Of a DNA stretch of 16,293 nucleotides, positions 59 through 16,041 are shown in pieces. The translations under genes were made by a program, and so were the position numbers. The notes beneath the pieces were generated by a model. That model did no database searches. It saw only the letters and a list, made by a program, of their open reading frames with translations, and was not told the DNA's origin. This DNA comes from a virus (Duplodnaviria > Heunggongvirae > Uroviricota > Caudoviricetes): the IMG/VR virus record IMGVR_UViG_3300042296_001032. The stretch is one strand, 5' to 3'. Within the stretch, counting starts at the first letter, position 1. Each line of letters opens with the position of its first letter.

Positions 59-472
59 TTACACCCCAAAATTCTTTATAAATTTTCTGGCATCCATTAA
101 CTCTAGATTTTCTCCATAATTTTCAGAAACTCCGTTAGCAAAATCTTTTATATGTTCTTCATAATCCTCATCTTCCTCAAGGTGAGTGGTATAAACAAAT
201 TTTAACTCACCCTTAAAGTCAAGATAAGAATAAAGGCCAACAGCGGTTTCGTATCTATTTAGTACTTTTGGTGTTAAATGTTCAGATTCAAAACCTAAAC
301 TAATAAGTTGATTAACTAATTTTGCATAATCTATATCACCTTCTCTAGCTTTTGGTTCAAAATAAAAAGCTTTATTAATAAACATTTCAGGACCAAAACC
401 AGTGTCCATCATCCATTCAAGACCTGTTACTTCTTCCTTTAATATTTTCTTTATACGTTCTTTTAAATTCAT
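59..472 (-). CDS. Hypothetical phage protein with N-terminal KKILKEE/LEW tag (putative virion cargo)
   Basis: 137-aa ORF beginning MNLKERIKKILKEEVTGLEWM, matching the tag shared with neighbouring ORFs. No other recognisable motif. Confidence 0.8.
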   Translation of the reverse strand: MNLKERIKKILKEEVTGLEWMMDTGFGPEMFINKAFYFEPKAREGDIDYAKLVNQLISLGFESEHLTPKVLNRYETAVGLYSYLDFKGELKFVYTTHLEEDEDYEEHIKDFANGVSENYGENLELMDARKFIKNFGV

Positions 473-473
473 A

Positions 474-884
474 TTAATTTATTTCTACAACCATAACACC
501 ACTAACATCAATCCAAGTATTACCTAGTTTACGTTTTAAATCTATTAACCAAAAATCAGTTGTATCTTCATCAGCGTAATCAGTTGACCTTTGTACTCCA
601 TCTGACTCATTTCCCATAAATCCATCTTCTTCATCAATAATAAATTTCTTTTTAAATATTTTACCATTTTTTAAATATTTTCTAGTACCCTCATTTTGAT
701 TAAGTTCTTTAATAGCTTTTGGACCCAATTCAACAATTTTAAATTTAGCACCAGGACCAAGACTTGTAACAGGTACTGGTTTAATATCCCTAATCCAATC
801 TAAACTATCAAACATATCATCATCACCTTCAATAAGAAGGCCCATGATTGATTTGATTCTATTTATTTCTTCTTGTGGGTTCAT
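474..884 (-). CDS. Hypothetical protein, paralog of 886..1236, with LLIE/LDW tag
   Basis: 136-aa ORF. Shares LDWxR, FIIDE, TDYxDxxTTDFWLI and GVMV motifs with the adjacent ORF. Confidence 0.85.
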   Translation of the reverse strand: MNPQEEINRIKSIMGLLIEGDDDMFDSLDWIRDIKPVPVTSLGPGAKFKIVELGPKAIKELNQNEGTRKYLKNGKIFKKKFIIDEEDGFMGNESDGVQRSTDYADEDTTDFWLIDLKRKLGNTWIDVSGVMVVEIN

Positions 885-977
885 ATTAATCTACTCTTAT
901 TACCATAACACCATCAGATTCAACCCAACCACCTGACACACTTACACCTGCAGGAATTAACCAAAAATCAGTTGTAT
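544..977. repeat. 22-nt exact direct repeat shared by the tandem paralogs (544-565 and 956-977)
   Basis: ATTAACCAAAAATCAGTTGTAT is present at both positions and encodes TTDFWLI in both ORFs. Confidence 0.9.
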
Positions 978-1236
978 TTGTATCAGAGTAATCAGTTGTT
1001 ACACCCTTATCTTCGTCATAAAATCCACCACTTTCATCAATAATAAAAATTGTATTCACTAAATCATGGTCTTCAAGGTCACTGTCAAAATAAATAGAAT
1101 TAAGTGATTTTTTTGGTAGGTGATGAAACGTATATTTTTCACCAGGACTAAGGTCTGTTATAGGTACGTGTGGGGTAACATTTCTAACCCAATCAAGACC
1201 ATCCAATTCCTCCTTTATGATTTTTTTAAGATTCAT
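886..1236 (-). CDS. Hypothetical protein, paralog of 474..884, with KKIIKEE/LDW tag
   Basis: 116-aa ORF starting MNLKKIIKEELDGLDWVRNV. The GATATTTAT box lies 4 nt upstream. Confidence 0.85.
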   Translation of the reverse strand: MNLKKIIKEELDGLDWVRNVTPHVPITDLSPGEKYTFHHLPKKSLNSIYFDSDLEDHDLVNTIFIIDESGGFYDEDKGVTTDYSDTNTTDFWLIPAGVSVSGGWVESDGVMVIRVD

Positions 1237-1240
1237 ATCA

Positions 1241-1255
1241 ATAAATATCTTTATA
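1241..1255 (-). promoter_or_regulatory. TATAAAGATATTTAT box, putative phage late promoter or translation signal
   Basis: Positions 1241-1258 are identical over 18 nt to 1996-2013. The box ends 4 nt before the ATG at 1236. Confidence 0.6.
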
Positions 1256-1273
1256 AAAGAAAAACCCCTTATT

Positions 1274-1990
1274 TTAAAAGGATTTATACTGATATTCCTT
1301 TAATAAATTATATATTTGTTGGTATTGTCTTGTGATTTCTTCACTACTATCATTATCAAGACAAAAGTTAAAACTTTCTTTAGATTTTTCTAAAACATCA
1401 CTATAAGATATGTTTTTATAAACAATACCAAAAAATCTTCCAGCATCATATCTATCATATATTTCTAACTCAATTAAATTACCTTTATCGTCGTATTCGG
1501 TAATAACTCTATAACGTTCATCTGATTTTAAGGCATCTATAACCATTTCACCTACTGGTAAGACTTCTCTCATCCAATCCAAATCATCTTCTGCTTCTTC
1601 CTTTAAAGGATTAAAAATTTTATCAAGGGAATCAGTAAGAACCCAATGGTTATCTCTTACAATTAATCTTTTGGCACGTTTTTTAGTTACAGTACGTATA
1701 CCACCAACAGGTTCATCTTCTTCATCAGTTGTTACATGTATTTTATAATGAATAGTACCACTACCATCATAATCATCATCCTCATCATCCTCATCATCTA
1801 TCATACTATTGTAATCATCAATTTTAACGATTTCTAAAACGTATCTAATGGATTCATTAGAATCATATATTGTATACACATCACCAACTCTAACCTCACC
1901 TTTTTTTCTAGGTTTAACAGGTTCAAATTCGGTCCATGACCAATCATTATCCAAAGATTCTCTAATGATTTTTTTAATGAGGTTGTTCAT
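1274..1990 (-). CDS. Two-module hypothetical protein with N-terminal and internal xxE/DW tags; acidic D-rich tract
   Basis: 238 aa. Starts MNNLIKKIIRESLDNDW, has an internal LKEEAEDDLDWMREV and a DDEDDEDDDYD tract. Confidence 0.85.
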   Translation of the reverse strand: MNNLIKKIIRESLDNDWSWTEFEPVKPRKKGEVRVGDVYTIYDSNESIRYVLEIVKIDDYNSMIDDEDDEDDDYDGSGTIHYKIHVTTDEEDEPVGGIRTVTKKRAKRLIVRDNHWVLTDSLDKIFNPLKEEAEDDLDWMREVLPVGEMVIDALKSDERYRVITEYDDKGNLIELEIYDRYDAGRFFGIVYKNISYSDVLEKSKESFNFCLDNDSSEEITRQYQQIYNLLKEYQYKSF

Positions 1991-1995
1991 ATGAG

Positions 1996-2010
1996 ATAAA
2001 TATCTTTATA
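1996..2010 (-). promoter_or_regulatory. TATAAAGATATTTAT box, putative phage late promoter or translation signal
   Basis: Ends 5 nt before the ATG at 1990 and directly follows the terminator at 2011-2041. Confidence 0.6.
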
Positions 2011-2041
2011 AAACAAAAAACCTCTTACAGTTAAGAGGTTT
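2011..2041 (-). terminator. Intrinsic terminator
   Basis: 10-bp stem AAACCTCTTA/TAAGAGGTTT (2018-2041) with a 4-nt loop, followed by TTTGTTT on the minus strand, just after ORF 2050..2550. Confidence 0.75.
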
Positions 2042-2049
2042 AATAAAAA

Positions 2050-2550
2050 TTATAATTTCAATTTTTTAATATTTTTTCTAGGGTTCATACTATTACTGTA
2101 ATAATTTTGTATAGTTATATAACCACATAAACCTTTTTTATATTCTAAAACTTCTTCAGGTGTACATTGCCTTTCATGTAATACCATAACTTCAGGTATC
2201 TCACTCTCATTGGCCCTAACAGACCTAACTACCATTTGTGGTGTAGTGTTATCTGTTCTATTACAAACGAAGATAATATCTAAATCCATAGATTCATCTA
2301 ATTCAACCCTATATCTATTAAGTAGACCGTTATCATAATAATATTCTGATAAGAGTTCAATTAGTTTTGGGTTCATTATTACAGTATCTCCACCTCTCCT
2401 CAAAGAAGAACGATGTATTTGTGTAGAGACTTGGTTAATTCTTGTTATAAGGGTTTTATTCCACTCAGGTTGGATGTCATCCATATCAGTCATATTTTGC
2501 CAACCCGTATAATCCCAAATTGTGGTATGTTTACAGTCACCTATATTCAT
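2050..2550 (-). CDS. Truncated gp23-like major capsid protein homologue (C-terminal portion only)
   Basis: EWNKTLITRINQVSTQIHRSSLRRGGDTVIMN...GLLNRYRVELD aligns by eye with T4 gp23 ESFKALLFQIDKEAVEIARQTGRGEGNFIIAS...GVLGGKYRVYID (recalled from memory). Only 166 aa. Confidence 0.65.
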   Translation of the reverse strand: MNIGDCKHTTIWDYTGWQNMTDMDDIQPEWNKTLITRINQVSTQIHRSSLRRGGDTVIMNPKLIELLSEYYYDNGLLNRYRVELDESMDLDIIFVCNRTDNTTPQMVVRSVRANESEIPEVMVLHERQCTPEEVLEYKKGLCGYITIQNYYSNSMNPRKNIKKLKL

Positions 2551-2774
2551 TTAAAATAATTTTTAACCTCTATCGTATCATGAACACTAAAAACTAATGT
2601 ATCGGCATTAGTTTCAATACAGGTCCATTTATTATTATCACAAAAATGCCAATGACCATCCTCTAAAACAATGGTATCTTCCCAAAAATCAGGATATCTT
2701 TCAACATAATAATCCTTGTTCTGATATGATTTACAAGCAAATAATACAGGTAGTATAAAAAATATTTTTTTCAT
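2547..2774 (-). CDS. Small predicted lipoprotein
   Basis: MKKIFFILPVLFA-C: basic N-terminus, hydrophobic stretch and a lipobox-like LFAC. 75 aa. Confidence 0.65.
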   Translation of the reverse strand: MKKIFFILPVLFACKSYQNKDYYVERYPDFWEDTIVLEDGHWHFCDNNKWTCIETNADTLVFSVHDTIEVKNYFK

Positions 2775-2962
2775 TTTTGTTTTGGCTTACGGCCTCTTTT
2801 CTTAGGTAAACTATCTTTTGATTTTTCCAAATGATTATTAGCTTTTTCTAGTTTTTCAGGAAAAAGAATTTCTTCAGTTTCAGGAATAAGAATTGTGGTA
2901 TACTCAGGGAATAATTGATTTGACCCGACACCAAGACATACTTGAATTGTTTTATATTTCAT
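2771..2962 (-). CDS. Small hypothetical protein with C-terminal AT-hook-like KKRGRKPK
   Basis: 63 aa with a 4-nt overlap to the next gene. Ends PKKRGRKPKQK. Confidence 0.7.
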   Translation of the reverse strand: MKYKTIQVCLGVGSNQLFPEYTTILIPETEEILFPEKLEKANNHLEKSKDSLPKKRGRKPKQK

Positions 2963-2963
2963 T

Positions 2964-3215
2964 TTATTTATATTTTACTCTTTTTATGTTATCAGTTGGG
3001 GTTTCCATTACTTCACCGTTACATTGTTTAATAGCACTAATACCTGAAGTATATGATTGTATATAAACAGCATCAACTTGTGACCCACCCCTTAAAAAAA
3101 CTACCTGATTGCAACCATCACTATCTTTATAATCATAAGAACCCAATATAATGGATAACACAATTAATGGTATTAATAACATGTGCCAAGGATGGTCTTT
3201 AAAAAATTCTTTCAT
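2964..3215 (-). CDS. Small single-pass membrane protein with two periplasmic Cys
   Basis: The ORF track starts at TTG 3230; ATG 3215 (MKEFFKDHPW) is preferred. Hydrophobic segment MLLIPLIVLSIILG. Confidence 0.7.
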   Translation of the reverse strand: MKEFFKDHPWHMLLIPLIVLSIILGSYDYKDSDGCNQVVFLRGGSQVDAVYIQSYTSGISAIKQCNGEVMETPTDNIKRVKYK

Positions 3216-3259
3216 TACTATAGTACCCAAATGGGTTATTTATAATTTTAATTATATGA

Positions 3260-3658
3260 TTATTTTACGTTAGGTAAAATCATCTCCAAGGTGTAGATAT
3301 TATCCATATCTTGTTTGGTTTTTTTCTTCTTAGCTTTTAACATAGCTAATTCATCCAAAATTTCTTCCCGTTTAGTTTTAGGAACTTTTTTTATAGGTGT
3401 TTCTTTTACAACAACTACTGTTTTAGGTTTTTTAGTTGTAGTTTTAATTTTGTTATTAACAACAACCTTATCTCTATAGACAACCTTTTCAACAACCTTA
3501 TCTTGGTAAACAACTCTATCTTGATATGTAATTCTATCACGATACCTTATTTCAGGTACGTAAACAATATTTTCCACAACTTCTTTTGACTTACCATATA
3601 TTGAAAATATAGTGATAAGCAAAATGATATTTACAATGATAGAGATTATTAATGCCAT
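3260..3658 (-). CDS. N-terminally anchored membrane protein with Y[RQ]D[RK]VV beta-type repeats
   Basis: TM segment MALIISIIVNIILLITIFSIYG, then YRDRITYQDRVVYQDKVVEKVVYRDKVV, then a K-rich tail. Confidence 0.8.
   Translation of the reverse strand: MALIISIIVNIILLITIFSIYGKSKEVVENIVYVPEIRYRDRITYQDRVVYQDKVVEKVVYRDKVVVNNKIKTTTKKPKTVVVVKETPIKKVPKTKREEILDELAMLKAKKKKTKQDMDNIYTLEMILPNVK
3461..3545. repeat. Degenerate coding tandem repeat (AACAACCTTATCT at 3461 and 3491)
   Basis: A 13-nt exact repeat with a 30-nt offset underlies the YxDKVV peptide repeats. Confidence 0.6.
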
Positions 3659-3662
3659 GAGA

Positions 3663-3693
3663 CAAAGATAATAAAATATTCTTTATTTAAAAC
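3663..3693 (-). promoter_or_regulatory. Bacteroidota-type housekeeping promoter (TAnnTTTG -7 box)
   Basis: The minus strand reads GTTTTAAATAAAGAATATTTTAT-TATCTTTG-TCTCATG. TATCTTTG (3663-3670) exactly fits TAnnTTTG, 4 nt before the ATG. Confidence 0.6.
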
Positions 3694-3708
3694 ATTTTAT
3701 TAAAAAGT

Positions 3709-4242
3709 TTACCATTTCAACAACCAACCCTTTTCATAATCAAAATCACTACTGACCCATGAAATTGAGAACCCGACCTTCTCTAAAGATTTTAAAACTT
3801 CAAATTCCATAGAAGCAAATAAAATTTGACTATTACCTTTGTTAGCCTCTTCTTTGATTCTATTAAAATAATAAGTTAAATCAACATCAGAAACACCAAA
3901 ATTTTCGGTTATCTTACGAGCTTCTTCTACGGTTAAAACTTTATTCTTACCATAATAATCATCATAAGAAGTTTTTATCTGATGAGTTTTACCTCTCATT
4001 TTATGATAAAGTTCCCAATTAACAATACATTCAGTTAATTCAGTAGATTTTTTGAACTCTTCTTTTCTTTTTTTAACAACGTAGGCATCATATTCCTCAT
4101 CTGTGATAGGTTCTACCAACTCAGACATTAAAAGACTTATAGTTTGATTAATACAATCAACATTTTTATCTTTACTAAAAGTATTCTCAAAGTATTCTAA
4201 AGTACGTATAGTAGATAGAATATTCTCTCTATTCAGATTCAT
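3709..4242 (-). CDS. Hypothetical protein
   Basis: 177-aa ORF on the coding strand. No motif recognised. Confidence 0.8.
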   Translation of the reverse strand: MNLNRENILSTIRTLEYFENTFSKDKNVDCINQTISLLMSELVEPITDEEYDAYVVKKRKEEFKKSTELTECIVNWELYHKMRGKTHQIKTSYDDYYGKNKVLTVEEARKITENFGVSDVDLTYYFNRIKEEANKGNSQILFASMEFEVLKSLEKVGFSISWVSSDFDYEKGWLLKW

Positions 4243-4369
4243 CTTTAGTATCGTTATCGTTGTTGTTATTAAAAATGTCTGTTATTCTTGCTGTCACAAA
4301 AATAATGATAAAACCCAAAAACAAAGTTACTATCGGGTGATTACCCATCGCATCAAAAGCTTCTTCCAT
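4229..4369 (-). CDS. Small membrane protein, 46 aa (not in ORF track)
   Basis: Hand translation: MEEAFDAMGNHPIVTLFLGFIIIFVTARITDIFNNNNDNDTKDESE*. One TM helix; fills the gap and overlaps the next start. Confidence 0.65.
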   Translation of the reverse strand: MEEAFDAMGNHPIVTLFLGFIIIFVTARITDIFNNNNDNDTKDESE

Positions 4370-4384
4370 ATATAATTTTTAATA

Positions 4385-4413
4385 AGATTAAGTATAATAA
4401 AATTAATTGTCAA
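4385..4413 (-). promoter_or_regulatory. Putative host-RNAP (early) promoter TTGACA-N17-TAATCT
   Basis: Consensus -35 hexamer with a 17-nt spacer in the intergenic gap before ATG 4369. Confidence 0.45.
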
Positions 4414-4451
4414 AAGATTTTTAGAATTTATCTTTTGGAATTAAATATTTA

Positions 4452-4571
4452 TCATTTTCTGTTTTTCTTTTTTGAAATAATTTCAACAGCTGAAGCTAGG
4501 ATTACTACTATAACAATAACTAAGAATATTGCTGATACAGGGTTTTCTTTTAAAGATTCTATAATTTTCAT
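4452..4571 (-). CDS. Small membrane protein, 39 aa (not in ORF track)
   Basis: Hand translation: MKIIESLKENPVSAIFLVIVIVVILASAVEIISKKKNRK*. One TM helix and a basic C-tail. Confidence 0.65.
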   Translation of the reverse strand: MKIIESLKENPVSAIFLVIVIVVILASAVEIISKKKNRK

Positions 4572-4594
4572 TTTTTTTTTATTTTTTAATAACT

Positions 4595-4614
4595 AAAAAC
4601 CCCCAATTGGGGGT
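4595..4614 (-). terminator. Intrinsic terminator
   Basis: Palindrome ACCCCC-AATT-GGGGGT (4599-4614) followed by a T run on the minus strand, just after the stop at 4620. Confidence 0.7.
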
Positions 4615-4619
4615 AATTG

Positions 4620-4862
4620 TTATTGGTTTACAGATTTTTTTCTTGTTTTTTGTGGTTGTGCCGTTGGGTTTGGTCCACTTTTTTTAACATTACTTTTTGG
4701 TTTCACATTTCCTTTGGTAGTACTTTTTTTCAAAGCCTTCGGTGTAACTTCTTCAACAGGACTATATTTTTTTCTTAAATACTCAGCCCAATCAGCTTGT
4801 TTTCTACCATTAACAAAAAACCACCCAAAATTTATTTCAAACCATTTAATTATATTTTTCAT
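4620..4862 (-). CDS. Small basic protein with K/P/T-rich tail
   Basis: Track ORF is 4620..4889. The second ATG (4862, MKNIIKWFEINFGWFF) is preferred because it reduces overlap with ORF 4846..4971. Confidence 0.7.
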   Translation of the reverse strand: MKNIIKWFEINFGWFFVNGRKQADWAEYLRKKYSPVEEVTPKALKKSTTKGNVKPKSNVKKSGPNPTAQPQKTRKKSVNQ

Positions 4863-4971
4863 CTTTTCTATAGTTTTTAGAATATTCATACTCTTCTAAT
4901 TCAGGTGGACAATCGTCAACAATATTACGTTTCCACCAATTTTTTAAATATGTTTTTATTTTTTGTAACAT
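4846..4971 (-). CDS. Small hypothetical protein, 41 aa (not in ORF track)
   Basis: Hand translation: MLQKIKTYLKNWWKRNIVDDCPPELEEYEYSKNYRKDEKYN*. ATG directly follows the upstream TAA. Confidence 0.55.
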   Translation of the reverse strand: MLQKIKTYLKNWWKRNIVDDCPPELEEYEYSKNYRKDEKYN

Positions 4972-5127
4972 TTAATTTAATTCTCTATTATACAAATTAA
5001 CTAAAATTAATCTAGCCATTTTAAATTCTCTAGCTTTATTTAATTTTAAACCATAAACTTTAGAAATTTCTTTTAAGTGTGGTAACATCTCACTTAATTT
5101 AGATTTACCAATAGTTTTTCTTTCCAT
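4972..5127 (-). CDS. Small basic hypothetical protein, 51 aa (not in ORF track)
   Basis: Hand translation: MERKTIGKSKLSEMLPHLKEISKVYGLKLNKAREFKMARLILVNLYNRELN*. Confidence 0.6.
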   Translation of the reverse strand: MERKTIGKSKLSEMLPHLKEISKVYGLKLNKAREFKMARLILVNLYNRELN

Positions 5128-5151
5128 GAAACAATTATAATAATTTTTTAT

Positions 5152-6648
5152 TTAAATGTCCATACGATATTGTGACAAGTAAAAGGGTAAATCATCAAAA
5201 TTTATTTGAAACACATTTTTTGGGTCGGTTCCCCCACTCATTCTTTTTGTTTTTCTTAATCTCAGTTTATTAGATTCCAAATCTATTTCATCAGCAACCC
5301 AAATCCAACCATCAACATCATCATTTTTTGACCATACATTACCATAACCTGCAGTTGGTTTAAAACCTAATTTTTGTAATCTATCATAGAATTTTTTTTG
5401 TTCCATAAATTCTTCTGGATTTTCATCAATATATTCTTCACTATTACTTAAAAATTTATCAAAAGCATCCCTGATTTCCCATTCAGCACCACTAGTATCC
5501 CATTCTTCATAAAAGTAGTCATACCAACTGACGTTAGTTACAATAGAAGATAATTCATTTAAAGCTTTCGATAAATCGTTATTAACAGTATTCTTTTCAA
5601 GAATTGTAATTAAATCTTTTGTACTTAAAGTGATTTCAATAGTATCATACCATCTGGAATATGATTTTTTAAATTTTACAGGAAATTTAAATTTATTATC
5701 AGAACCTAAAGTTAATGTTCTATAATATTCAGCGATTGAATTCCATCTATTTTCTTGTATTTTATAACTAAGAATTTCTATAAAACGATTTTGTAAAGTA
5801 TCCCAATACCTTTTAATTTGTGAAATAAGTAAATGTTTTTCTAAATCATTTAAATTATCATTTAAATACTCTTCCAAATCTATATTAGGTGAAATTAATT
5901 TTACAATTTTTTCTAATCTTTCTTTTTGTTCAGATGACATATGATACCCAGCATAATCAAATTCTTCATAGTCCAAATCATAGTAATCATTATCATTACT
6001 GTAATTTGGATTTTCTAAAAGTGGTTCAATAATACTTTCATTATCACCAAAACCTTCACTCATCCTGTCCCTCCATTTTTCATAGTCTAAGGAAAAAACT
6101 GTTTCATCGTCACCAATATTAATCTCACAATCGTCTCCTTGATTATTAAAACAAACACTATCCTCATCAAAATATTTTCCAGGTAAAAAAGAAGGTATTT
6201 CGTGTATCCAATCAAAATCAGAATAACCTTCAACCTCTTCTCTAATTATTTTTTTGATTATACTTTCATACATTTGGTTAGTTAATTTGGGGTGTTTATC
6301 CTCAAATTTTTTAATTACCTCACCCGCTTTAGCATTGGCCTCATTTTCATTTTTACTACCAACATTTTTTTGTTTTTTTCTACCTAATACGGTTCTTTGA
6401 TATTCATGAATCCATTCGTGTGCTAAGGTTCTAAGAACATCTCTATTCATTCTACCTTTAACAAGAATCTTTAACGTATGTTTGTTTGTTCTTGCACCAG
6501 TAGTCATCTCATCTAATCTAGATGACATAAAACGTATTTTAATATTGTGTTCTAATGGATATTCCTTTTTTAAAAAATTAATGAACTCATCATAAAGTTT
6601 CATATCTTTTTTAGAAATTTCACATTCTACAGATTTTTCTATTTCCAT
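5152..6648 (-). CDS. HExxH zinc-metallopeptidase-like N-terminal domain fused to a tagged acidic domain
   Basis: TLAHEWIHEYQ with downstream ENEANA, then internal IIKKIIREE...DFDWI. Start moved from GTG 6684 to ATG 6648 because the GATATTTAT box lies 6 nt upstream of it. Confidence 0.8.
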   Translation of the reverse strand: MEIEKSVECEISKKDMKLYDEFINFLKKEYPLEHNIKIRFMSSRLDEMTTGARTNKHTLKILVKGRMNRDVLRTLAHEWIHEYQRTVLGRKKQKNVGSKNENEANAKAGEVIKKFEDKHPKLTNQMYESIIKKIIREEVEGYSDFDWIHEIPSFLPGKYFDEDSVCFNNQGDDCEINIGDDETVFSLDYEKWRDRMSEGFGDNESIIEPLLENPNYSNDNDYYDLDYEEFDYAGYHMSSEQKERLEKIVKLISPNIDLEEYLNDNLNDLEKHLLISQIKRYWDTLQNRFIEILSYKIQENRWNSIAEYYRTLTLGSDNKFKFPVKFKKSYSRWYDTIEITLSTKDLITILEKNTVNNDLSKALNELSSIVTNVSWYDYFYEEWDTSGAEWEIRDAFDKFLSNSEEYIDENPEEFMEQKKFYDRLQKLGFKPTAGYGNVWSKNDDVDGWIWVADEIDLESNKLRLRKTKRMSGGTDPKNVFQINFDDLPFYLSQYRMDI

Positions 6649-6654
6649 CAATAA

Positions 6655-6663
6655 ATAAATATC
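6655..6663 (-). promoter_or_regulatory. GATATTTAT box
   Basis: Same 9-mer as at 1241, 1996 and 9659; 6 nt before ATG 6648. Confidence 0.55.
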
Positions 6664-6706
6664 TTGAAAATTATAATAATACACTAGGATGTGATATAGA
6701 TTGTAA

Positions 6707-7009
6707 CTATTGGATAAACTCGTTAAGTTTATTTTTTATTAAATCTTTAGCCATTGCACCAGATTGTCTCCACACAATTTCACCTTCTTTAAATAGAATA
6801 AAAGTGGGTACCCCTCTTACATTATATTTCATGGCAGTTTCTCTATTAGAGTCAACATCCACTTTTAAAATTGTTACAGAATCACCAATCTCAGATTTAA
6901 TTTCTTCTAATGGTTTTTCCATCATTCTACAAGGACCACACCAAGTGGCATAAAAATCTACCAAGGTAGGTTTTTTTGATTTAATTATTTCATTAAAATT
7001 ATCACTCAT
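6707..7009 (-). CDS. trxA: Thioredoxin
   Basis: LVDFYATWCGPC active site, VDVD, cis-Pro loop GVPT, GA motif near the C-terminus; 100 aa. Confidence 0.97.
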   Translation of the reverse strand: MSDNFNEIIKSKKPTLVDFYATWCGPCRMMEKPLEEIKSEIGDSVTILKVDVDSNRETAMKYNVRGVPTFILFKEGEIVWRQSGAMAKDLIKNKLNEFIQ

Positions 7010-7029
7010 TTTTTATATTTTTATTTATA

Positions 7030-7449
7030 TTATTTCCTAGTTGGTATTGTAATATCTTCAATGGTCTTAAACCCAAATTTAAGTTTAACTCTATCAGATA
7101 TTGGAATAGATTTGTTTTCTTCGTTTACTCTAACAAAGACGCATTTAGTATCTGATACCACATTTTGTTCACCATCATAAACATCGTGTGACCTTGCTTC
7201 TATTTTAAGAGTAATACTTTTATTACCAATATCTAAAATATCTGCGTATATTTTAATAACTTGACCTTCTTTAGCTGGTCTTACAAATACTGAATCCATA
7301 GTTGCTGTTACCATTCTAGGGGTATCACAACATTGTGTCGCGTAAGATAAAGCTGCCAAATCTATCCACTGTAATAACTGACCCCCAAAAAGATTCCCAT
7401 GAAAACCGAGGTCAGATTTTCTAATGGGATGTGTCGATATCAATTCCAT
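7030..7449 (-). CDS. Acyl-CoA thioesterase (hotdog fold, YciA-like)
   Basis: DLGFHGNLFGGQLLQWIDLAA matches the NxxGxxFGGxxxxxxDxAA hotdog thioesterase signature, followed by VTA and FVRV strands. Confidence 0.88.
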   Translation of the reverse strand: MELISTHPIRKSDLGFHGNLFGGQLLQWIDLAALSYATQCCDTPRMVTATMDSVFVRPAKEGQVIKIYADILDIGNKSITLKIEARSHDVYDGEQNVVSDTKCVFVRVNEENKSIPISDRVKLKFGFKTIEDITIPTRK

Positions 7450-7808
7450 TAATTTATATCAATTAAATTTTTTAATTTTTCTTCACCTAAAGGAAATTTT
7501 ATACTTTCTTTAGGCCATACTCTATCTTTTTTTTCACTGTTACAACTATAACAAGATATAACAAAATTATTTTCATCCATTTTTAATTCATTGTATCTAG
7601 ACTTTGGATAAAAATGGTCTACAGTTGCTACATCATCGTTACTAATTTTTTCACACCAATCGTAAACTACTAAATTTTGTTTTCCACAATATTCACAATG
7701 TAATTTACTGTATTCTAATTCTGTTTTTCTTAAAAATTCTATATTAAATTTTAGTTGTAACCATCTGTCTTCATTTTTTTTAGCCCAAAATGGTTTTTTT
7801 CTGCACAT
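7449..7808 (-). CDS. HNH endonuclease
   Basis: CEYCG...ATVDHFYPKS...NFVISCYSCN: two CxxC pairs plus the DH and N catalytic positions. Confidence 0.9.
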   Translation of the reverse strand: MCRKKPFWAKKNEDRWLQLKFNIEFLRKTELEYSKLHCEYCGKQNLVVYDWCEKISNDDVATVDHFYPKSRYNELKMDENNFVISCYSCNSEKKDRVWPKESIKFPLGEEKLKNLIDIN

Positions 7809-8005: not shown

Positions 8006-8042
8006 ATGTTAATGATACTAAAAACATTTAAATAAGAAAAGT

Positions 8043-9653
8043 TTAGAATGGTAAATCACTGTTTTTATTTAGTGAATTTCTTTTTTTAATTAACCCCCTA
8101 ATTATAACATCTAATTCCTCCAAGTCCATTTTGTTTTTGATTGGGTCTTCTTCTCTAAGTTTATCCCACTCATTTTCCAATCTGTCTATTTGTTTATCTA
8201 ACCTTTCAATTTCACTTTGACCTGTATTAGGCATCACAGTAGTTTTAGGTAATTCAGTTGTACTGGTTGGTACGTTAGTTTTAGGTTCTGTTTTTGGATA
8301 AACTTTAGGTGGAGCTTGTACAGTCATTGGTTTTCCGTGAACGTACTTCATTTTATCAATACGTTTTAGGATATCACGACCTCTTTTGTTAAAATATTTT
8401 TCAGTATAATTTAAGAAATCTACCACATTTTTAAACTTTCTAAAGAAAGGTATGTTAAACTCTGTTATTAACTTAGTCCAAGACTCTTGTAAACCCTTTG
8501 CTGGGTTACCTTGTTTATCTAAAAAGTTTGAAGCTTTAAAATTCATTAATTTTTTAGCTGTATCACGATAACTACCCATCACAGGACTATCATATTCATT
8601 TTCTAAATAAGCTGGAGCTTCCAGTTTAGAACCTAAATAGTAATATCTTATTATTGGATGTAACATTGGGCTTAGCTTAAATGACCCACCTAAAACTAAT
8701 TTTTCAAAATCAGGTGTATAGATATTTTTTATTTCCCACCCATCTCTGATTGCTGGTTTACCTTTCCTCATACGGTTCCAATCGTCATAAGCATGTTTAA
8801 TCTCGTGTATCAAAGCAGAACCACCGATTGAGCTCATAGGCATATTCAAATAAACTACATATTCACCGGCATCATTATAACCAGATTTCCAATGGTCATA
8901 TTCAATTCTATCAGAGTTGGTGATTATCCATTTATCAACATTAAAATCTTTGTAAGATTGTGGAAAATCTTTCCCGTTAATTTCTATTTTATCAATTTTT
9001 GGTTGTTGCTGGTACCCACCATAATAACCATACCCTCCTCTATAATCATATCCTCTATTATAATCATCATAAGAAGATTCAGACATATAATAAGTGTATT
9101 CGTCATCACCGTAATCTACGGCGTAAACAAGTTCATAATCTTCAGTATAAAAAGGTTCTCCACTAACCATATGGTCTTCGATAATTTCTTCTATACCTTC
9201 TCTAAAATTTTCAGGAAATTTAGAATCTACCACATCAACATAAAAAGCACCCTCACCATCTAATTTAATATTAAACAACATACCCGTTATAGCACGTTTA
9301 ATACCAGGGAACTCATATAAGACATCAGCATTTATAACCAATTCGTCAGCATAAACATTAGCCTCTTCATAAGGTTCATGTGTATCATTTTCAAAATGGG
9401 TGAAAGTTGTTTTATAGTCATAGTCATCTTCTTCTTTTTCAGTTTTTGCTGGAGATGACCAAGAAAAATTTTTAGGACCTTGTTGTGTAGGTGGTGTTTT
9501 TGGTTGTTGTGGTGCTTGTGACTTTAGTTTTTCTCTTTCAGCAGCCACATAATTTTTTACATAATTCTCTATATCTTGTGCCCATCTTCTGACTTCAAAA
9601 GAAATACCTGCCACTTCAAGTAAAACACCTTTAATTATTTTTTTAGTATCCAT
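8043..9653 (-). CDS. Large multidomain protein with xxE tag and HExxH metallopeptidase motif
   Basis: Starts MDTKKIIKGVLLE. Contains SALIHEIKHAY and a downstream LEAPAY, Q/P- and G/Y-rich linkers, and a C-terminal predicted coil. Confidence 0.85.
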   Translation of the reverse strand: MDTKKIIKGVLLEVAGISFEVRRWAQDIENYVKNYVAAEREKLKSQAPQQPKTPPTQQGPKNFSWSSPAKTEKEEDDYDYKTTFTHFENDTHEPYEEANVYADELVINADVLYEFPGIKRAITGMLFNIKLDGEGAFYVDVVDSKFPENFREGIEEIIEDHMVSGEPFYTEDYELVYAVDYGDDEYTYYMSESSYDDYNRGYDYRGGYGYYGGYQQQPKIDKIEINGKDFPQSYKDFNVDKWIITNSDRIEYDHWKSGYNDAGEYVVYLNMPMSSIGGSALIHEIKHAYDDWNRMRKGKPAIRDGWEIKNIYTPDFEKLVLGGSFKLSPMLHPIIRYYYLGSKLEAPAYLENEYDSPVMGSYRDTAKKLMNFKASNFLDKQGNPAKGLQESWTKLITEFNIPFFRKFKNVVDFLNYTEKYFNKRGRDILKRIDKMKYVHGKPMTVQAPPKVYPKTEPKTNVPTSTTELPKTTVMPNTGQSEIERLDKQIDRLENEWDKLREEDPIKNKMDLEELDVIIRGLIKKRNSLNKNSDLPF

Positions 9654-9658
9654 ATGAT

Positions 9659-9667
9659 ATAAATATC
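9659..9667 (-). promoter_or_regulatory. GATATTTAT box
   Basis: 5 nt before ATG 9653. Confidence 0.55.
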
Positions 9668-9670
9668 ATA

Positions 9671-10709: not shown

Positions 10710-11157
10710 CTTCTTCTCCTTTAATAATATTAATAACTTTTTCTATTTTACTTTTTTTCTTTTTTGTGGGTCTTAGTGTTATACTACCTTTATCATTTAC
10801 CACAGTATCACCTACATGAAAATTAATTACACTATGTTTTCTACCACTTAAAAAATTAAATTTTACCCTATTAATATCCTCTCTATCAGATTCTATATTT
10901 ATAGAACTTAATTCTTTAGGGATAATATTTATACCACTTTCATCAAATATTATTTCAAAATAATGGTTTATATCATCAACCCATTTTGTATCTATCTGAT
11001 ATAAAATTTCTTCGGGTTTAACCCAAAACCTTTTTTCTTGGTAGGTTACTTCATAAGACCCGTTAGACATAAAGGTACTAGGTGTATTAAAAATATTAAC
11101 CTCCCTACCGTCTTTTAATTTAATAATATCACCCTTGTTGTACATCACCTCAATCAA
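10699..11157 (-). CDS. Hypothetical protein, possible N-terminal SH3/KOW-like barrel
   Basis: YNKGDIIKLKDGREVNI pattern. Start is TTG 11157 or ATG 11145. Confidence 0.75.
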   Translation of the reverse strand: MIEVMYNKGDIIKLKDGREVNIFNTPSTFMSNGSYEVTYQEKRFWVKPEEILYQIDTKWVDDINHYFEIIFDESGINIIPKELSSINIESDREDINRVKFNFLSGRKHSVINFHVGDTVVNDKGSITLRPTKKKKSKIEKVINIIKGEEDEI

Positions 11158-12074
11158 AATCCAACCTCTTCCATTCCTTCTTCAGAATATGCCTGACTTT
11201 CATAGATAGTATAATCACCAATCTCTATGTCCTCCGTTAACATTTCGGAAGGGTAAGCCCTCTCTTCGTCATCCGTGATAACATATAATGGTGGTACTAT
11301 TTTAAGTTGTCCATAATATTTATCTTTATTTTTAATTTCCTCATCAGAAAATAATTCTGAATTTTTTGGGTTATTACTTAGATTTGATTTTTCTCTAATT
11401 ATAGATAAAATCTCGTAAGGAACTCCTGACTCTAAAGAATCAATTCTATTATCAGTAGTATTCCAAACAGAAAATTCATTAGGTGAGGAATTAAAACCAT
11501 ATTTTTTACCGTTAACTTTATTAATTACATATAACAAAATACCTTCACTAGCATATCGATAAAAATATGTTGGTTCCATTTTCATGGCTGTACACCATTT
11601 TGTACCTGAACCATAAGCTAAAGAAGCACTAAATGATAAAGGTTTAATTACTAACCAAGTAGAGTCTTCGTAAATACGTTCAACTTGTTTAGTTAATTGT
11701 TTATCCATTTGTTTTACATCAGCAATACCTTTTTGTATCAACAAATCTTCCCACGTCTCATATTGATTAATATCAGTATTTTCAATACGATTATTTTCTA
11801 GATGTTCATTAAACTCCCTTAATGTTTCAAGTCCTTGGTAACCGTCACCTATAACATCTATCAACATTTCAATAATATATAAATCAATTCCATTATTAGT
11901 TATATCACTAAATTCTTTTTTGGCGATGTAACCTCTATCTAAAATATTTTTAGATAGGATTTTCAAAAGAAATGGTGTTAATTTATTTGTTTTACTAGGG
12001 TCTATCCTAGAAACATAATCTATGACACTCACATCCAAATTGGTGTATTGTTTTTTTAAATCTTTTTTTCCCAT
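11154..12074 (-). CDS. Phage protein with YGxGTKWCT motif (possibly PcfJ-like domain)
   Basis: WLVIKPLSFSASLAYGSGTKWCTAM...FYRY...LLYVINK...KKYG is a motif I associate with large-phage proteins. The family label is tentative. Confidence 0.6.
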   Translation of the reverse strand: MGKKDLKKQYTNLDVSVIDYVSRIDPSKTNKLTPFLLKILSKNILDRGYIAKKEFSDITNNGIDLYIIEMLIDVIGDGYQGLETLREFNEHLENNRIENTDINQYETWEDLLIQKGIADVKQMDKQLTKQVERIYEDSTWLVIKPLSFSASLAYGSGTKWCTAMKMEPTYFYRYASEGILLYVINKVNGKKYGFNSSPNEFSVWNTTDNRIDSLESGVPYEILSIIREKSNLSNNPKNSELFSDEEIKNKDKYYGQLKIVPPLYVITDDEERAYPSEMLTEDIEIGDYTIYESQAYSEEGMEEVGF

Positions 12075-12094
12075 TGTTAGTTATTTAATACTTA

Positions 12095-12123
12095 ATTCTA
12101 CTAAAAATTAATTGATTAGTAAA
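12095..12123 (-). promoter_or_regulatory. Putative host-RNAP promoter TTTACT-N17-TAGAAT
   Basis: Near-consensus hexamers with a 17-nt spacer, between the tRNA terminator and ATG 12074. Confidence 0.45.
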
Positions 12124-12131
12124 TAAATTTT

Positions 12132-12164
12132 AAAACAAAAAAAAGGCCACATTTCTGTGACCTT
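12132..12164 (-). terminator. Intrinsic terminator after tRNA
   Basis: Minus strand AAGGTCAC-AGAAAT-GTGGCCTT (8-bp stem with one G:U pair) followed by a long T run. Confidence 0.8.
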
Positions 12165-12169
12165 ATTTG

Positions 12170-12242
12170 AGCGTAACGATGAGATTCGAACTCTCGTCTC
12201 CTACCTGGAAGGTAGGTATTCTAACCACTAAACTAGTTACGC
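12170..12242 (-). tRNA. trnG: tRNA-Gly (anticodon UCC); CCA not encoded
   Basis: Acceptor GCGTAAC/GTTACGC, discriminator U, D loop with GG, anticodon stem CCTAC/GTAGG around CT-TCC-AG, T loop TTCGAAT. The T stem carries one extra A. Confidence 0.93.
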
Positions 12243-12496
12243 ATATTCGGTGGTTTTACCCACCGTATTATTTCAAACTATATGGTTTCTTATAACTAAG
12301 AACTTTAGTACTTTCCATATCATATAACTCCCACCAAATTTCTTTTTTCAATGACTAATACCATGTCAACATGGTTTTATATAGTCTCCAAAAGCGTAAC
12401 TTCGGATATTCACCCTAGTCGGTTGGTTACTCACGATATTTATCATCTACCGTATTCTACCAAAACTTTGTAAACCTTTTGTTTGATTACACTACA

Positions 12497-12525
12497 ATAT
12501 TAGTGTTTATTTTTTAATCAGTCAA
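12497..12525 (-). promoter_or_regulatory. Putative host-RNAP promoter TTGACT-N17-TAATAT(TG) driving the tRNA unit
   Basis: -35 at 12520-12525 and -10 at 12497-12502. TAATATTG also resembles the Bacteroidota -7 box. Confidence 0.55.
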
Positions 12526-12529
12526 CAGC

Positions 12530-12781
12530 TTATCTTAATTTTATTCTAGGTACGAAAGCTTTTTCTACACTTTGTGGGTCTATTTCATACAAATCAAAAT
12601 CATCTGAACATAATTTGACTAATTGTGAATCACCACCACCCAAATCTAAAAAAGCAAATAACACAATATCACCTACTGACATCACTCTTCCTGAATGATA
12701 AGTTTTATCATTAAACTCAATTAAACTTTCTTCAGTAACCCTTTTATTACCATCAATCTGTTCAGTAAAATATTCTATCAT
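12530..12781 (-). CDS. Hypothetical protein
   Basis: 83-aa ORF with an ATGA overlap to the upstream gene. Confidence 0.75.
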   Translation of the reverse strand: MIEYFTEQIDGNKRVTEESLIEFNDKTYHSGRVMSVGDIVLFAFLDLGGGDSQLVKLCSDDFDLYEIDPQSVEKAFVPRIKLR

Positions 12782-13197
12782 GACTCAGAAACTTTATCAA
12801 AAATTTTTTGTAAACTATTAGTAATTTGAGCTTTGATTTTTTCTTCGTAAGCCAATCTAATAGTCTCAGTTTTATGGTTATACATATGATGTAGTCTATT
12901 AGCATCTCTGTTATCTAGTTTAACTACATAATGGTAAACGTGGTTTGTCATTTCAACAGTATTTTGTTGAAAAACAACAAACATAGCCAATTTCTCATTG
13001 ATGATATATCTTTTATCTGAGATTGGTGCAATACTAAACTTTGATTCAGGGTGACTAATAAGTTTTCTACAAATAGAAAGACATAATTTTTCATACTCTG
13101 TTTTTTCACCCTCAGGCTTAAGAAATTTAGTACCCTTCTCCCACATTAAAAATTTAATACCAAATCTTTTAATTCTTCTTTTAATCCAATTAACCAT
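12778..13197 (-). CDS. Hypothetical protein
   Basis: 139-aa ORF in the operon. Confidence 0.8.
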   Translation of the reverse strand: MVNWIKRRIKRFGIKFLMWEKGTKFLKPEGEKTEYEKLCLSICRKLISHPESKFSIAPISDKRYIINEKLAMFVVFQQNTVEMTNHVYHYVVKLDNRDANRLHHMYNHKTETIRLAYEEKIKAQITNSLQKIFDKVSES

Positions 13198-13202
13198 ATT
13201 TT

Positions 13203-13811
13203 TTAATTTAATCCTTTATTAATATCTGACAAAACTGAGTTGACTAGTTGTGAACCTATTTTTTGGTTCCAAAATCTAGTTTGATGGACTGTTTTTTTAG
13301 CTTCTGAATGGACAATTTTCCAATCATCTTCTCTATTAATAAAAGAAACCATTTCATCATCTAATAGAACAGACCTTAAAGTACTTAATAATTTATCTAT
13401 CTTTTCCTCATAATCTTCTTTACTTAAAGTTTTTCTATTTGTTTCACTATCTTCGTATGTGTCTGCAAAGATAATACAAAATTCGACAATTGGATTCTTT
13501 TCTGGATTTTTTGGGTTAAAAATTAATTCACTATTTTTTTTAGAGGAAACCTCATTTAATAAAAGTGACATCATATTTTCTATATCAAAGTTTGTTCCAA
13601 CTCTTCTATACAATCTACGACAAATAGGTATGTACACATTATCAAATATTTCAAATACGTCTTTAGGTATTTTCTTTAATGCTTGTTCAGATAACAACAA
13701 TCTAGTTGCGTTATCATAAACTTGTGCAAGTTCTTCTTTTTCCCATACAGGTAGACCTTCTAAAAGACCTAAAGATTCCCACCTTTGTATTACATTTAAT
13801 ATATCACTCAT
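13203..13811 (-). CDS. Protein with N-terminal region resembling the gp23 major capsid protein N-terminus, plus unrelated C-terminal domain
   Basis: IQRWESLGLLEGLP...LAQVYDNA...YIPICRR aligns by eye with T4 gp23 LNKWKPLLEGEGLP...IAKIFENQ...VMGMVRR (recalled from memory). Confidence 0.6.
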   Translation of the reverse strand: MSDILNVIQRWESLGLLEGLPVWEKEELAQVYDNATRLLLSEQALKKIPKDVFEIFDNVYIPICRRLYRRVGTNFDIENMMSLLLNEVSSKKNSELIFNPKNPEKNPIVEFCIIFADTYEDSETNRKTLSKEDYEEKIDKLLSTLRSVLLDDEMVSFINREDDWKIVHSEAKKTVHQTRFWNQKIGSQLVNSVLSDINKGLN

Positions 13812-14479
13812 AAAGATAAAATCGATTTAGTTGTTACAAATTCTAATGGAACCTCATTCGATAAAGGTCCAACTATTTGGTCAGGGTATGGATTTTGTTT
13901 TTGTTCTATAATATCATCCTTTCTGAAAGGCATACCTCTTAAAGTTCTATTAGCATCTTCAACAACTTTAACAGCATAACCCCTTCTTAATAAACCTTTA
14001 ACCGTTGGTCCGACATCAATACCATAAACCAAAAAGATTGGTCTTTGCATAATAGGAATACCTAAATTATGTATTAAAGATTCTGAATAAGTATTACCCT
14101 CAAAAAAATCCATAGTTCTTTTAGTGACAACTATTTGGTCACTTTGGTGTATGTCGTGAAATGCCAAACCTGAAGAAGAATTCCAATCCATTAAAAAATA
14201 AGATTCAGGTGATGTTTCTTTAAGAAATTTAGCACCCTCAGTGTTTATTAAACAATGTTTTGGAAAGGTGTCTTTGTAGTTAGGGTTATCTGATAAGTGT
14301 TTGGCATTTTCAGTATACCAACCAGCTATATTAATAACTTTAGCATTTCTAATTTTAGCATACTGTGTTAAATCATTAAGATTTGTTAGTATACTATCAG
14401 AACTGGGTATTTTGTAGGAACCAGTAAAAAAATCCCTTTGCGTATTTACGTTAATAAATATTGGAAATAAATCTTCCAT
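13808..14479 (-). CDS. Nicotinamidase/isochorismatase-family homologue, probably catalytically inactive
   Basis: INVNTQRDFF.G, FPKHC...T.GA, VTK and GY.V.VVEDA motifs fit the cysteine-hydrolase fold, but the catalytic Asp and Cys positions are substituted. Confidence 0.8.
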   Translation of the reverse strand: MEDLFPIFINVNTQRDFFTGSYKIPSSDSILTNLNDLTQYAKIRNAKVINIAGWYTENAKHLSDNPNYKDTFPKHCLINTEGAKFLKETSPESYFLMDWNSSSGLAFHDIHQSDQIVVTKRTMDFFEGNTYSESLIHNLGIPIMQRPIFLVYGIDVGPTVKGLLRRGYAVKVVEDANRTLRGMPFRKDDIIEQKQNPYPDQIVGPLSNEVPLEFVTTKSILSL

Positions 14480-15126
14480 TATAATGACCTTAATTTAGCT
14501 TGTGTTATTACCTCAGCCATATCTCTAAGTACATTACTTTTTTCAAACCACATTACTGCGATTAAAGATTTAGCGTCAATCAATTGGTATGGTGGCATCA
14601 TTTTAGATTCTTTACCAACTTCCATATTAAACCCTGTTGGGTCATCAAAAAATAGTCTACCGTTTAGACCTAACTTTTCTACTTCAACAATAGAAATGTT
14701 TTCATCTCCAATACCACCACCTTTATTTACTCTCTCACTAACCTCACAATAAAACAATGATATAATTTCAGTTGTTCTTCCTGGTGAGGTGTAGAAATCA
14801 CTTATATGGTTTGTAAAATCTACCTTATAACCTGTTTCCTCCATGATTTCTCTTTTTATTGCTTGTTCGTGTTTTTCACCTTTGTCTACACTACCAGCAA
14901 CTACTTCTACCATAACACCTTCAGCACCAGCTCTGTACTGTTCAACAAAGATGTATTTTTTCTTAACCGTATCAAAAATAATAGCGGCAACACAATCTGG
15001 TATTTTTAAGATTTCTCTTTTAGTTTCTTTCTCACCATCACTGATTGTGAGTTCTTCTATTTTAGAAAAGCTATTATATAAAGTTTTTCTATCTTTTACA
15101 CTGTAATTAGTTATAACATTTTCCAT
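14479..15126 (-). CDS. nudF: Nudix hydrolase, ADP-ribose pyrophosphatase-like
   Basis: Intact Nudix box GSVDKGEKHEQAIKREIMEETGY, preceded by FVEQYR...EVVAG and followed by YTSPG and IDAK, as in ADPRase-type enzymes. Confidence 0.85.
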   Translation of the reverse strand: MENVITNYSVKDRKTLYNSFSKIEELTISDGEKETKREILKIPDCVAAIIFDTVKKKYIFVEQYRAGAEGVMVEVVAGSVDKGEKHEQAIKREIMEETGYKVDFTNHISDFYTSPGRTTEIISLFYCEVSERVNKGGGIGDENISIVEVEKLGLNGRLFFDDPTGFNMEVGKESKMMPPYQLIDAKSLIAVMWFEKSNVLRDMAEVITQAKLRSL

Positions 15127-15128
15127 AT

Positions 15129-15308
15129 TTACACATTTAATTCGGGTTCTTCACCACTTTGTATTTGTTGTTTAGATAATTCTTTAGCTACCTCTTCACC
15201 AAATTGGGCCTCCAATTTTTTGTAAAAAGCACGTCTTTTTTCGTCTAACTTTTGTCTTCTAAGGGCCACTCTCTTTTTATGGTCTTTTTTATTTTTTGAT
15301 TTTGGCAT
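15129..15308 (-). CDS. Small basic protein, 59 aa (not in ORF track)
   Basis: Hand translation: MPKSKNKKDHKKRVALRRQKLDEKRRAFYKKLEAQFGEEVAKELSKQQIQSGEEPELNV*. Ends 2 nt before the Nudix ATG. Confidence 0.75.
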   Translation of the reverse strand: MPKSKNKKDHKKRVALRRQKLDEKRRAFYKKLEAQFGEEVAKELSKQQIQSGEEPELNV

Positions 15309-15372
15309 AATAAAACTTTTTATTAATAATTATTTTATTAATAGTAAGTTTTTTATTTAATAAATTAAAGCC

Positions 15373-16041
15373 CTAGAAGGAATAAATAGCGTCAGGTAAA
15401 CGTCTTCTAGCGTAAGTTACCCAAGTATTTAATAGTTTACTTGATTCTTCTCTTGAAAGGTTCCCCAACATAATTTCATGGTTTAAGTCATCCATCATTA
15501 CAATATCCAAAGGTTTCTTTTCTATTTTGGCCCTTCTATAAAACCCATGTACTAAAGCCTCAACTTCTGATGGGTCCATGTGATGTTCAAAGGTAGATTC
15601 ATAATCTGCTGTATATTCTATGTTAGGTTGTTGTCTATCCGAAAAAATTCCTTGTAATAGATGTTCCAACTCATGTCTAACATCCTCGTTAATTTTATAA
15701 AAAATTTCTTCGTAATATTCTTTATCGTAATTGTTGTTAATTAAAATCTCAACGTTAAGATAATCCTCATCATCAATATACGATTTAACATAATAAGGTA
15801 TTTCTTCACCATTATGTTCTATATTATCATTTGTTCTTAGAATAGTTAATTCTACATTAATATTTAAGTTTGGCCCTTGGTAATATTCTTCTCCGTTTTT
15901 TTCAAAAGGCAATGAAAAATATTCAGATTCATCATAACTACCCTCAGTTTCTTTAATGCAACTAATAATATCCCTACTAATAATACGGGTCAATGAATCA
16001 TACTTACCTTCTAATAATATTTGTTTTTTGGTTTTAATCAT
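15373..16041 (-). CDS. HExxH zinc-metallopeptidase-like protein with N-terminal LLE tag
   Basis: Starts MIKTKKQILLEG. Contains VRHELEHLLQ and a downstream EVEALVHG. Confidence 0.8.
   Translation of the reverse strand: MIKTKKQILLEGKYDSLTRIISRDIISCIKETEGSYDESEYFSLPFEKNGEEYYQGPNLNINVELTILRTNDNIEHNGEEIPYYVKSYIDDEDYLNVEILINNNYDKEYYEEIFYKINEDVRHELEHLLQGIFSDRQQPNIEYTADYESTFEHHMDPSEVEALVHGFYRRAKIEKKPLDIVMMDDLNHEIMLGNLSREESSKLLNTWVTYARRRLPDAIYSF

Follow-up and report, generated by a model that had tools for sequence, protein, structure and literature searches.

A conserved lysine-rich leader on unrelated, probably late proteins of uncultured tailed viruses: a candidate head-targeting propeptide

The stretch of DNA analysed here (the window) comprises 16,293 nucleotides, the minus strand of positions 169154-185446 of a 195,712-bp IMG/VR virus record (IMGVR_UViG_3300042296_001032; Caudoviricetes), and several of its otherwise unrelated proteins begin with variants of one short peptide, M-K-N-L-I-K-K-I-L-K-E, called the tag below. 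With moderate confidence, we read the tag as a head-targeting propeptide and cleavage site resembling the capsid targeting sequence (CTS) of phage T4. Its amphipathic, lysine-rich helix would bind the assembling prohead core, for which a very acidic scaffold protein is a plausible receptor, and a prohead protease of the gp21 type would cut after the Glu of [LI]-x-E; the motif [LI]-[KN]-E/S-E-E..F-x-W inside polyproteins (a slash marks the putative cut) would be the same site. Given this site inside multi-module proteins, one N-terminal tag could load a whole polyprotein that is later cut into modules. The released cargo would be a large, fast-changing set of mostly small acidic proteins, lysozyme-domain and HExxH proteins among them, which would accompany the DNA into the host or function within the head.

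The contig has a G+C content of 30.7%, an estimated completeness of 59% and almost all of its genes in one direction, and megablast with the window gave no match among cultured phages. A sequence-only reading of the window, which had taken the tag for a capsid-loading label, had suggested scanning the whole contig for it. Among the 257 non-overlapping open reading frames (ORFs) called there, the strict motif [KR][KRQS][IL][ILV][KRL]E was counted 28 times; 20 of these copies lie in the N-terminal 12 residues of an ORF (20/257), against 1.5 expected from a uniform spread and 0.085 from per-protein residue shuffling, so that chance is excluded for the N-terminal tag. The seven tag stretches which that reading had listed are all where it had placed them, on the minus strand, but they are not all of one kind: five are canonical (genes 59..472, 886..1236, 1274..1990 and 15373..16041, and an internal copy in 5152..6648), whereas that of 8043..9653 is a variant and that of 474..884 belongs to a third leader type.

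Within the 11 residues of the consensus, M1, I5, K7, I8 and E11 are invariant and L9 almost so; where the Glu is missing from its usual place, another [IL]-x-E follows a few residues later (GVLLE, GLLIE). Three genes have a long leader, MKKV[IV]RLTE.DL.R[LI]VKRI[IL]KE, and the third type, MN[PL]QEEI[NK]RIKSIMGLL[IM]E, is shared by window gene 474..884 and one P-loop protein; all three types have [IL]-x-E as their end. The tag is selected at the level of the peptide and not of the DNA, because the 45 tags comprise 38 distinct 18-mers, exchange K for R and use codons much as the genome does (A-ending codons are mildly enriched). A DNA-level recombination site in the tag region found little support: between tag regions the longest exact matches do not exceed 25 nt, and their median is 9 nt (controls, 7).

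The tag is also nearly confined to viruses. A degenerate DNA pattern of its 11 residues matched 51 stretches in IMG/VR viral contigs and, in 596 Gb of bacterial and archaeal genomes, only a single 730-bp contig; the tag is therefore a virus-specific signal and not a host sorting signal. At the 51 loci, 119 of the 702 ORFs are tagged, often several in a row. A relative of 318 kb (G002; 96% complete) has 23 tagged genes and shares 129 of the 257 proteins of this genome at a median identity of 46%, and most tagged proteins of either genome are without a counterpart in the other. A profile built from residues 1-33 of 37 tagged proteins, searched against 1.84 billion proteins, found 401 representatives of 50%-identity clusters at E ≤ 0.001; of the best 150 representatives, 140 match from residue 1 or 2 onward.

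Module junctions and cargo

About 55% of the tags are followed, within the next 2-10 residues, by [DE]-[FL]-[DEGS]-W-[AIV], an acidic segment which the sequence-only reading had suggested as a second docking or ejection signal. The segment does recur, but it has to be described differently: inside proteins a fixed [LI]-[NK]-E-S-E-E stands before it, and it is the downstream half of a fixed module junction, [LI]-[KN]-E-S-E-E..F-x-W. At the internal sites of two genomes, [ILV]-x-E lies within 14 residues in 20 of 26 cases, compared with 37% of acid-rich control positions (p = 4e-5), and the 60 internal junctions of database proteins have L or I at P3 (52/60), K or N at P2 (39/60), E at P1 and S at P1' (45/60).

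The modules between junctions have a median length of 131 residues, and at least one internal junction is found in 42 of the 150 representatives, a subset only, in which unrelated modules are joined in one polypeptide. Genes 1274..1990 and 5152..6648 of the window have two parts each, and some homologs of 1274..1990 carry an additional whole module inserted at its junction. The module of 15373..16041, tagged and alone in the window, forms the C-terminal end of an 871-residue protein of G002 (40204-42819) and also that of the 941-residue P0160, which has seven junctions; one database homolog contains a complete internal MKNIIKKILKE and represents a fusion of two tagged genes. As the same module occurs alone with a tag or inside a polyprotein, the N-terminal tag with its Glu and the internal junction are interchangeable, as expected of a cleavage site but not of a helix that serves for docking only. 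In structure models the leaders and the junction are of low confidence (predicted local distance difference test, pLDDT, below 50) and do not pack against the folds.

That the sequences behind the tag are mostly unrelated, as had been noticed from the window, holds for the wider set. With the tag and the 18 residues behind it trimmed off, 196 modules sort into 87 clusters by BLAST (33 clusters for the 35 modules of this genome), and in a profile-profile comparison of the 26 largest clusters none of the 325 pairs reached 90% probability, the best standing at 34%; genes 474..884 and 886..1236, which are paralogs, form an exception. Domains recognised in tagged proteins of this genome are a phage lysozyme domain and an L5 gp82-like domain. 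Pfam identified no peptidase family and no LPD or polyvalent-protein domain in 27 tagged proteins, the leads to LPD23 being weak and feature-based (scores 0.86-0.88), and PHROGs gave no function for most tagged proteins, nor for the genes between protease and scaffold described below.

Of the two modelled cargos (1274..1990 and 15373..16041), which differ in fold, module 2 of 1274..1990 (1274-1705, minus strand) is acidic and has a confident alpha-beta-beta-beta-alpha-alpha model. Its best match in the PDB, and the sole one at Z ≥ 5, is AcrIIA4 (5vzl_C; Z 6.3, root-mean-square deviation 3.4, 86/87 residues, 13% identity), although a Z below 8 may reflect a mere common arrangement; the match gives a weak lead to a possible anti-defence role.

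A further tagged protein, of 769 residues, is encoded in G002 (G002:C1:135696-138005; L088:15696-18005, minus strand) and has a PolyA_pol/CCA-adding head domain. Its divergent gene adjoins the prohead protease gene, and it would be a surprising head-cargo candidate; the phage itself has many tRNA genes.

Head genes, putative late promoters and competing explanations

Three tagged relatives, G001-G003 (380, 318 and 210 kb), each have a Peptidase_S77 gene (T4 gp21) and a gp23-type capsid gene a few kb apart (the prohead protease gene of G002 lies at L088:18056-18868), and the order of head genes in the relatives is terminase, portal, protease, scaffold, capsid. The alignment of their capsid protein with mature T4 gp23 starts near residue 64; directly upstream of this point, close to the aligned T4 cleavage site, stand L-Y-E and L-I-[SN]-E/T, so that the expected maturation site of the major capsid protein has the form of the tag end. 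The acidic scaffold of the relatives begins with KSII[ED]E and ALLE. In T4, the genes for the prohead core proteins surround that of the protease. In G001, G002 and G003, the short or the long tag is found on the genes of the protease-scaffold interval, and more tagged genes flank the module. This contig has only small fragments of gp23 (PF07068). Small genes of major capsid protein fragments share operons with tagged genes at G000:C1:117563-121219, outside the window, and at G002:C1:6264-12524.

The tagged genes are also distinguished by the promoter-like motifs ahead of them. The motif ATATTTAT stands ahead of the terminase, portal, protease and a putative tail gene in G002, and ahead of the baseplate wedge gene, the endolysin and large putative structural genes on this contig; we read it as a late promoter. 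A host-type motif, TAnnTTTG, which we take to be the -7 box of Bacteroidota housekeeping promoters, precedes about 24 genes on this contig, and in G002 it precedes 40. Where a tagged gene has its own promoter, this is of the late type in 23 cases and of the host type in one, versus 98 and 63 for untagged genes (Fisher p = 4e-4). The sequence-only reading had named a tag equally frequent in early non-virion proteins as evidence against capsid loading, and this comparison did not go against it. Judging from this common promoter, tagged genes are probably made late, together with the head proteins.

An alternative that we consider improbable is that the tag is an uncleaved docking helix, without any proteolysis, for a hub other than the prohead core, such as the outside of the capsid, the tail or baseplate, or a late complex for replication or packaging. 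The tag helix is amphipathic, very strongly conserved and virus-specific, and its genes are late; conservation across all 11 residues is stricter than the T4 CTS requires (PMC9026906), and acidic cargo is easier to accommodate at an exposed site than in a head filled with DNA. Such a helix would, however, leave unexplained both the internal [LI]-x-E-S-E-E boundaries, which are without it, and the occurrence of one module either tagged alone or in polyproteins, and the tagging of genes in the interval between protease and scaffold points away from a hub elsewhere.

Less probable still, to our minds, is that the junction is a processing site of the kind proposed for polyvalent proteins, used by another peptidase (for example by the HExxH modules themselves) in the cytoplasm or in the next host, with a separate role for the helix. 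HExxH occurs in three tagged window proteins, and the family of 15373..16041 (more than 100 database relatives), with its invariant H123, E124, H127 and E159, has a zincin-like metal site by motif and ends two long polyproteins. Polyvalent proteins free their domains by zincin peptidases (PMC5512222), and the hydrophobic F or L ahead of the W would suit the P1' site of a zincin. HExxH is nevertheless present in only 1 of 11 multi-junction proteins, the Pfam search of tagged proteins gave neither a peptidase nor an LPD family, and a fold search with the confident model of 15373..16041 (pLDDT 87) found no zincin match, the best hit (Z 6.9) involving helices only. A Glu at P1 with L or I at P3 is, moreover, the known preference of T4-type prohead proteases (PMC5694885).

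We give only a slight chance to a leader that serves expression, as the coding start of leaderless or nearly leaderless late mRNAs, acting in translation initiation or as a nascent-chain signal. Its appeal lies in the geometry of the promoters: TATTTAT lies only 4-7 nt ahead of the ATG at 20 of the 23 late promoters of tagged, operon-heading genes, versus 28 of 98 for untagged genes (p = 3e-7), the other geometry of ATATTTAT, with a leader of about 12-18 nt of AATAAAA type, being found at structural genes. Were the motif to act like the T4 late -10 element, the short spacing would imply leaderless or nearly leaderless late mRNAs, and the mild enrichment of A-ending codons could be seen in the same light. 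Many tagged genes, however, sit inside operons without a promoter of their own, copies of the tag lie at module boundaries within proteins, and the codons vary and K and R exchange while the hydrophobic residues, E and W stay fixed. A single fast-diverging paralog family in which the N-terminus alone is still recognisable, with no address function, is very improbable in spite of the similar module sizes (median 131 residues) and the few true paralogs (474..884 with 886..1236), and is rejected by the profile-profile comparisons (0/325 pairs at or above 90%), by the presence of lysozyme, L5 gp82-like and PolyA_pol head domains and HExxH proteins in one cargo, and by the different folds of the two modelled cargos.

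The head-targeting propeptide itself does not account for everything. Capsid loading, as first proposed from the window, is partly supported, having withstood each computational test that could have refuted it (the protease of the relatives, the form of the site, the promoter class and the gene neighbourhood), but fits poorly with the acidity of the cargo and with proteins of cytoplasmic appearance. The following weigh against it. The cargo is strongly acidic, with a median isoelectric point (pI) of 4.6 versus 6.0 for untagged proteins (p = 2e-4) and 79% of it below pI 6, while small basic cargo is typical of, though not defining for, the T4 CTS; acidic proteins are a poor fit beside packed DNA, and T4 internal proteins are basic. 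The tagged PolyA_pol/CCA-adding protein of G002 and the P-loop protein look like cytoplasmic enzymes. About 10% of genes as head cargo would lie far above any studied phage. The F-x-W segment, conserved as it is, is not needed by the T4 model and is without an explanation, and [LI]-x-E is short and common in proteomes rich in K, E and I (23-37% of 15-residue windows). The gp21-like protease, which the sequence-only reading had suggested looking for, is present in the three tagged relatives but was not found (Peptidase_S77, PF03420) on this 59%-complete contig, which is without the whole head module. The nearest cultured T4-like phage, Flavobacterium phage vB_FspM_immuto_3-5A (L102-L109), has no tag, and all phages that carry the tag are uncultured. 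A complex prediction that paired the G002 protease with residues 1-40 of a tagged protein scored 0.00 in a run without control pairs, which speaks neither for nor against the propeptide.

A tentative and rather doubtful extension of the head-targeting propeptide is a system in two parts, in which one helix loads the modules, the protease cuts every junction and the F-x-W end is a second signal. The N-terminal helix would carry into the prohead either one module or a chain of as many as about seven interchangeable ones, and each freed module would begin with the acidic F-x-W, possibly a signal for retention, for ejection or for a target in the host. The cargo pool would then amount to at least 400 protein clusters, mostly acidic and maybe rich in DNA mimics and other anti-defence proteins. 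Such a two-part loading and processing system would be previously undescribed; new here are the ATATTTAT promoter class, the tagged genes in the protease-scaffold interval, the architecture of junctions and polyproteins, the count of cargo clusters, the virus specificity and the acidic cargo. If the head-targeting propeptide is real, abundant aquatic T4-like jumbo phages, probably of Bacteroidota, would spend about one tenth of their genes on head-carried proteins, far more than T4, and the tag would be a sequence handle by which hundreds of candidate injected proteins could be listed from metagenomes, opening a direct way to new anti-defence factors. In that case the junction would amount to a ready-made "cut here" linker, and the tag might be used to pack foreign proteins into capsids, while the acidic cargo and the conserved F-x-W, which the T4 model does not predict, would call for a new explanation.

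Leaders, junctions and neighbouring genes in the window

All features of the window given here are on the minus strand. The leader of gene 59..472 (410..472) is MNLKERIKKILKE, followed by EVTGLEWM, that is, the tag and the acidic/W segment. In gene 474..884 the leader (789..884) is of the third type, MNPQEEINRIKSIMGLLIE, common to one other gene of the genome, and continues with GDDDMFDSLDWIR. Gene 886..1236 begins with MNLKKIIKE and then ELDGLDWV (1186..1236), and gene 1274..1990 with MNNLIKKIIRE and then SLDNDWSW (1934..1990), a leader that is modelled as a low-confidence helix, unpacked against the fold. The internal junction of 1274..1990 (1571..1615), between module 1 and module 2, reads FNPLKE/EAEDDLDWM. 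The internal tag and junction of gene 5152..6648 (6205..6264), SIIKKIIRE/EVEGYSDFDWI, divides an N-terminal part with HExxH from the C-terminal cargo. The variant leader of gene 8043..9653 (9615..9653), with KKIIKGVLLE, is MDTKKIIKGVLLE, and gene 15373..16041 begins with MIKTKKQILLE/G (16009..16041), in whose family E11 is nearly invariant and G12 invariant (35 homologs).

Promoter-like TATTTAT motifs lie at 1241..1247, 4 nt ahead of the ATG of gene 886..1236 and hence in the short-spacing class, at 1996..2002 for gene 1274..1990 (5 nt), at 6655..6661 for gene 5152..6648 (6 nt) and at 9659..9665 for gene 8043..9653 (5 nt).

Amid the tagged genes, at 6707-7808 and 13808-15126 (minus strand), stand auxiliary enzymes, namely a thioredoxin, a 4HBT thioesterase, an HNH endonuclease, an isochorismatase-like protein and a NUDIX hydrolase, of which the last two, encoded by adjacent genes, could be an NAD/ADP-ribose-related pair. 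None of these ordinary enzymes of the window has a tag, which we count in favour of the head-targeting propeptide.

Leaders of another sequence exist in the cultured phage vB_FspM_immuto_3-5A, where two small genes have MENFDLKKFLVEN in common, one of them just upstream of the terminase gene.

Comparison with known systems

The cargo-loading peptides of encapsulins and the encapsulation peptides of bacterial microcompartments likewise direct unrelated proteins into a shell by a short amphipathic helix on a flexible linker. They are cellular, differ in sequence and are not removed by proteolysis, so that the tag resembles them by analogy and not by membership.

Closer are the ejection and inner-body propeptides of the giant phages SPN3US, phiKZ and 201phi2-1 (PMC5694885, PMC7411985), where a gp21-related protease cleaves many head proteins behind the Glu of a three-residue motif, and where paralogs have identical N-termini while the rest has diverged. 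Their motif, however, is A/S/G-x-E, the propeptides often exceed 100 residues, processing affects only about 8-19 proteins, and no common short tag or repeated junction has been described for them.

Polyvalent proteins (Iyer et al. 2017, PMC5512222), which contain two to 15 unrelated domains per polypeptide and for which delivery alongside the DNA and cleavage into units have been proposed, share with the proteins described here the strings of unrelated modules, including lysozyme and HExxH, and a late or virion gene context. They differ in that here one fixed junction motif and one fixed tag are used, most genes encode just one module, neither a known LPD nor a Pfam domain from that set was found, and the processing enzyme is likely to be the prohead serine protease and not a built-in zincin.

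The closest parallel is the CTS of T4, which is found on the internal proteins IPI-III, Alt and gp24 and is removed by gp21 (Mullaney and Black 1996; reviewed in PMC9026906 and PMC3012670). For encapsidation of IPIII its first 10 residues are enough; of these, residues 4 and 7 matter in targeting and residues 8 and 10 in cutting, and the internal proteins of T-even phages vary, with the CTS alone in common (PMC9026906, PMC3012670); the proteases of the gp21 family all cut after Glu at a three-residue motif (PMC5694885). In both systems a short N-terminal leader (10 residues in T4, 11 here), with hydrophobic positions in its first part and (L/I)-x-E at its end, stands on unrelated, fast-changing proteins, and the lineage described here has the gp21-type protease, the gp23-type capsid protein and the T4-like order of head genes, with expression of the tagged genes probably tied to that of the head genes. 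The differences are these: T4 has leaders of the MKTYQEFIAE type on a handful of basic proteins, whereas the putative targeting leader here is the lysine-rich MKNLIKKILKE, tens of genes per genome carry it, the cargo is mostly acidic, and a second conserved segment (E-E..F-x-W) follows a site that is used again inside multi-module proteins.

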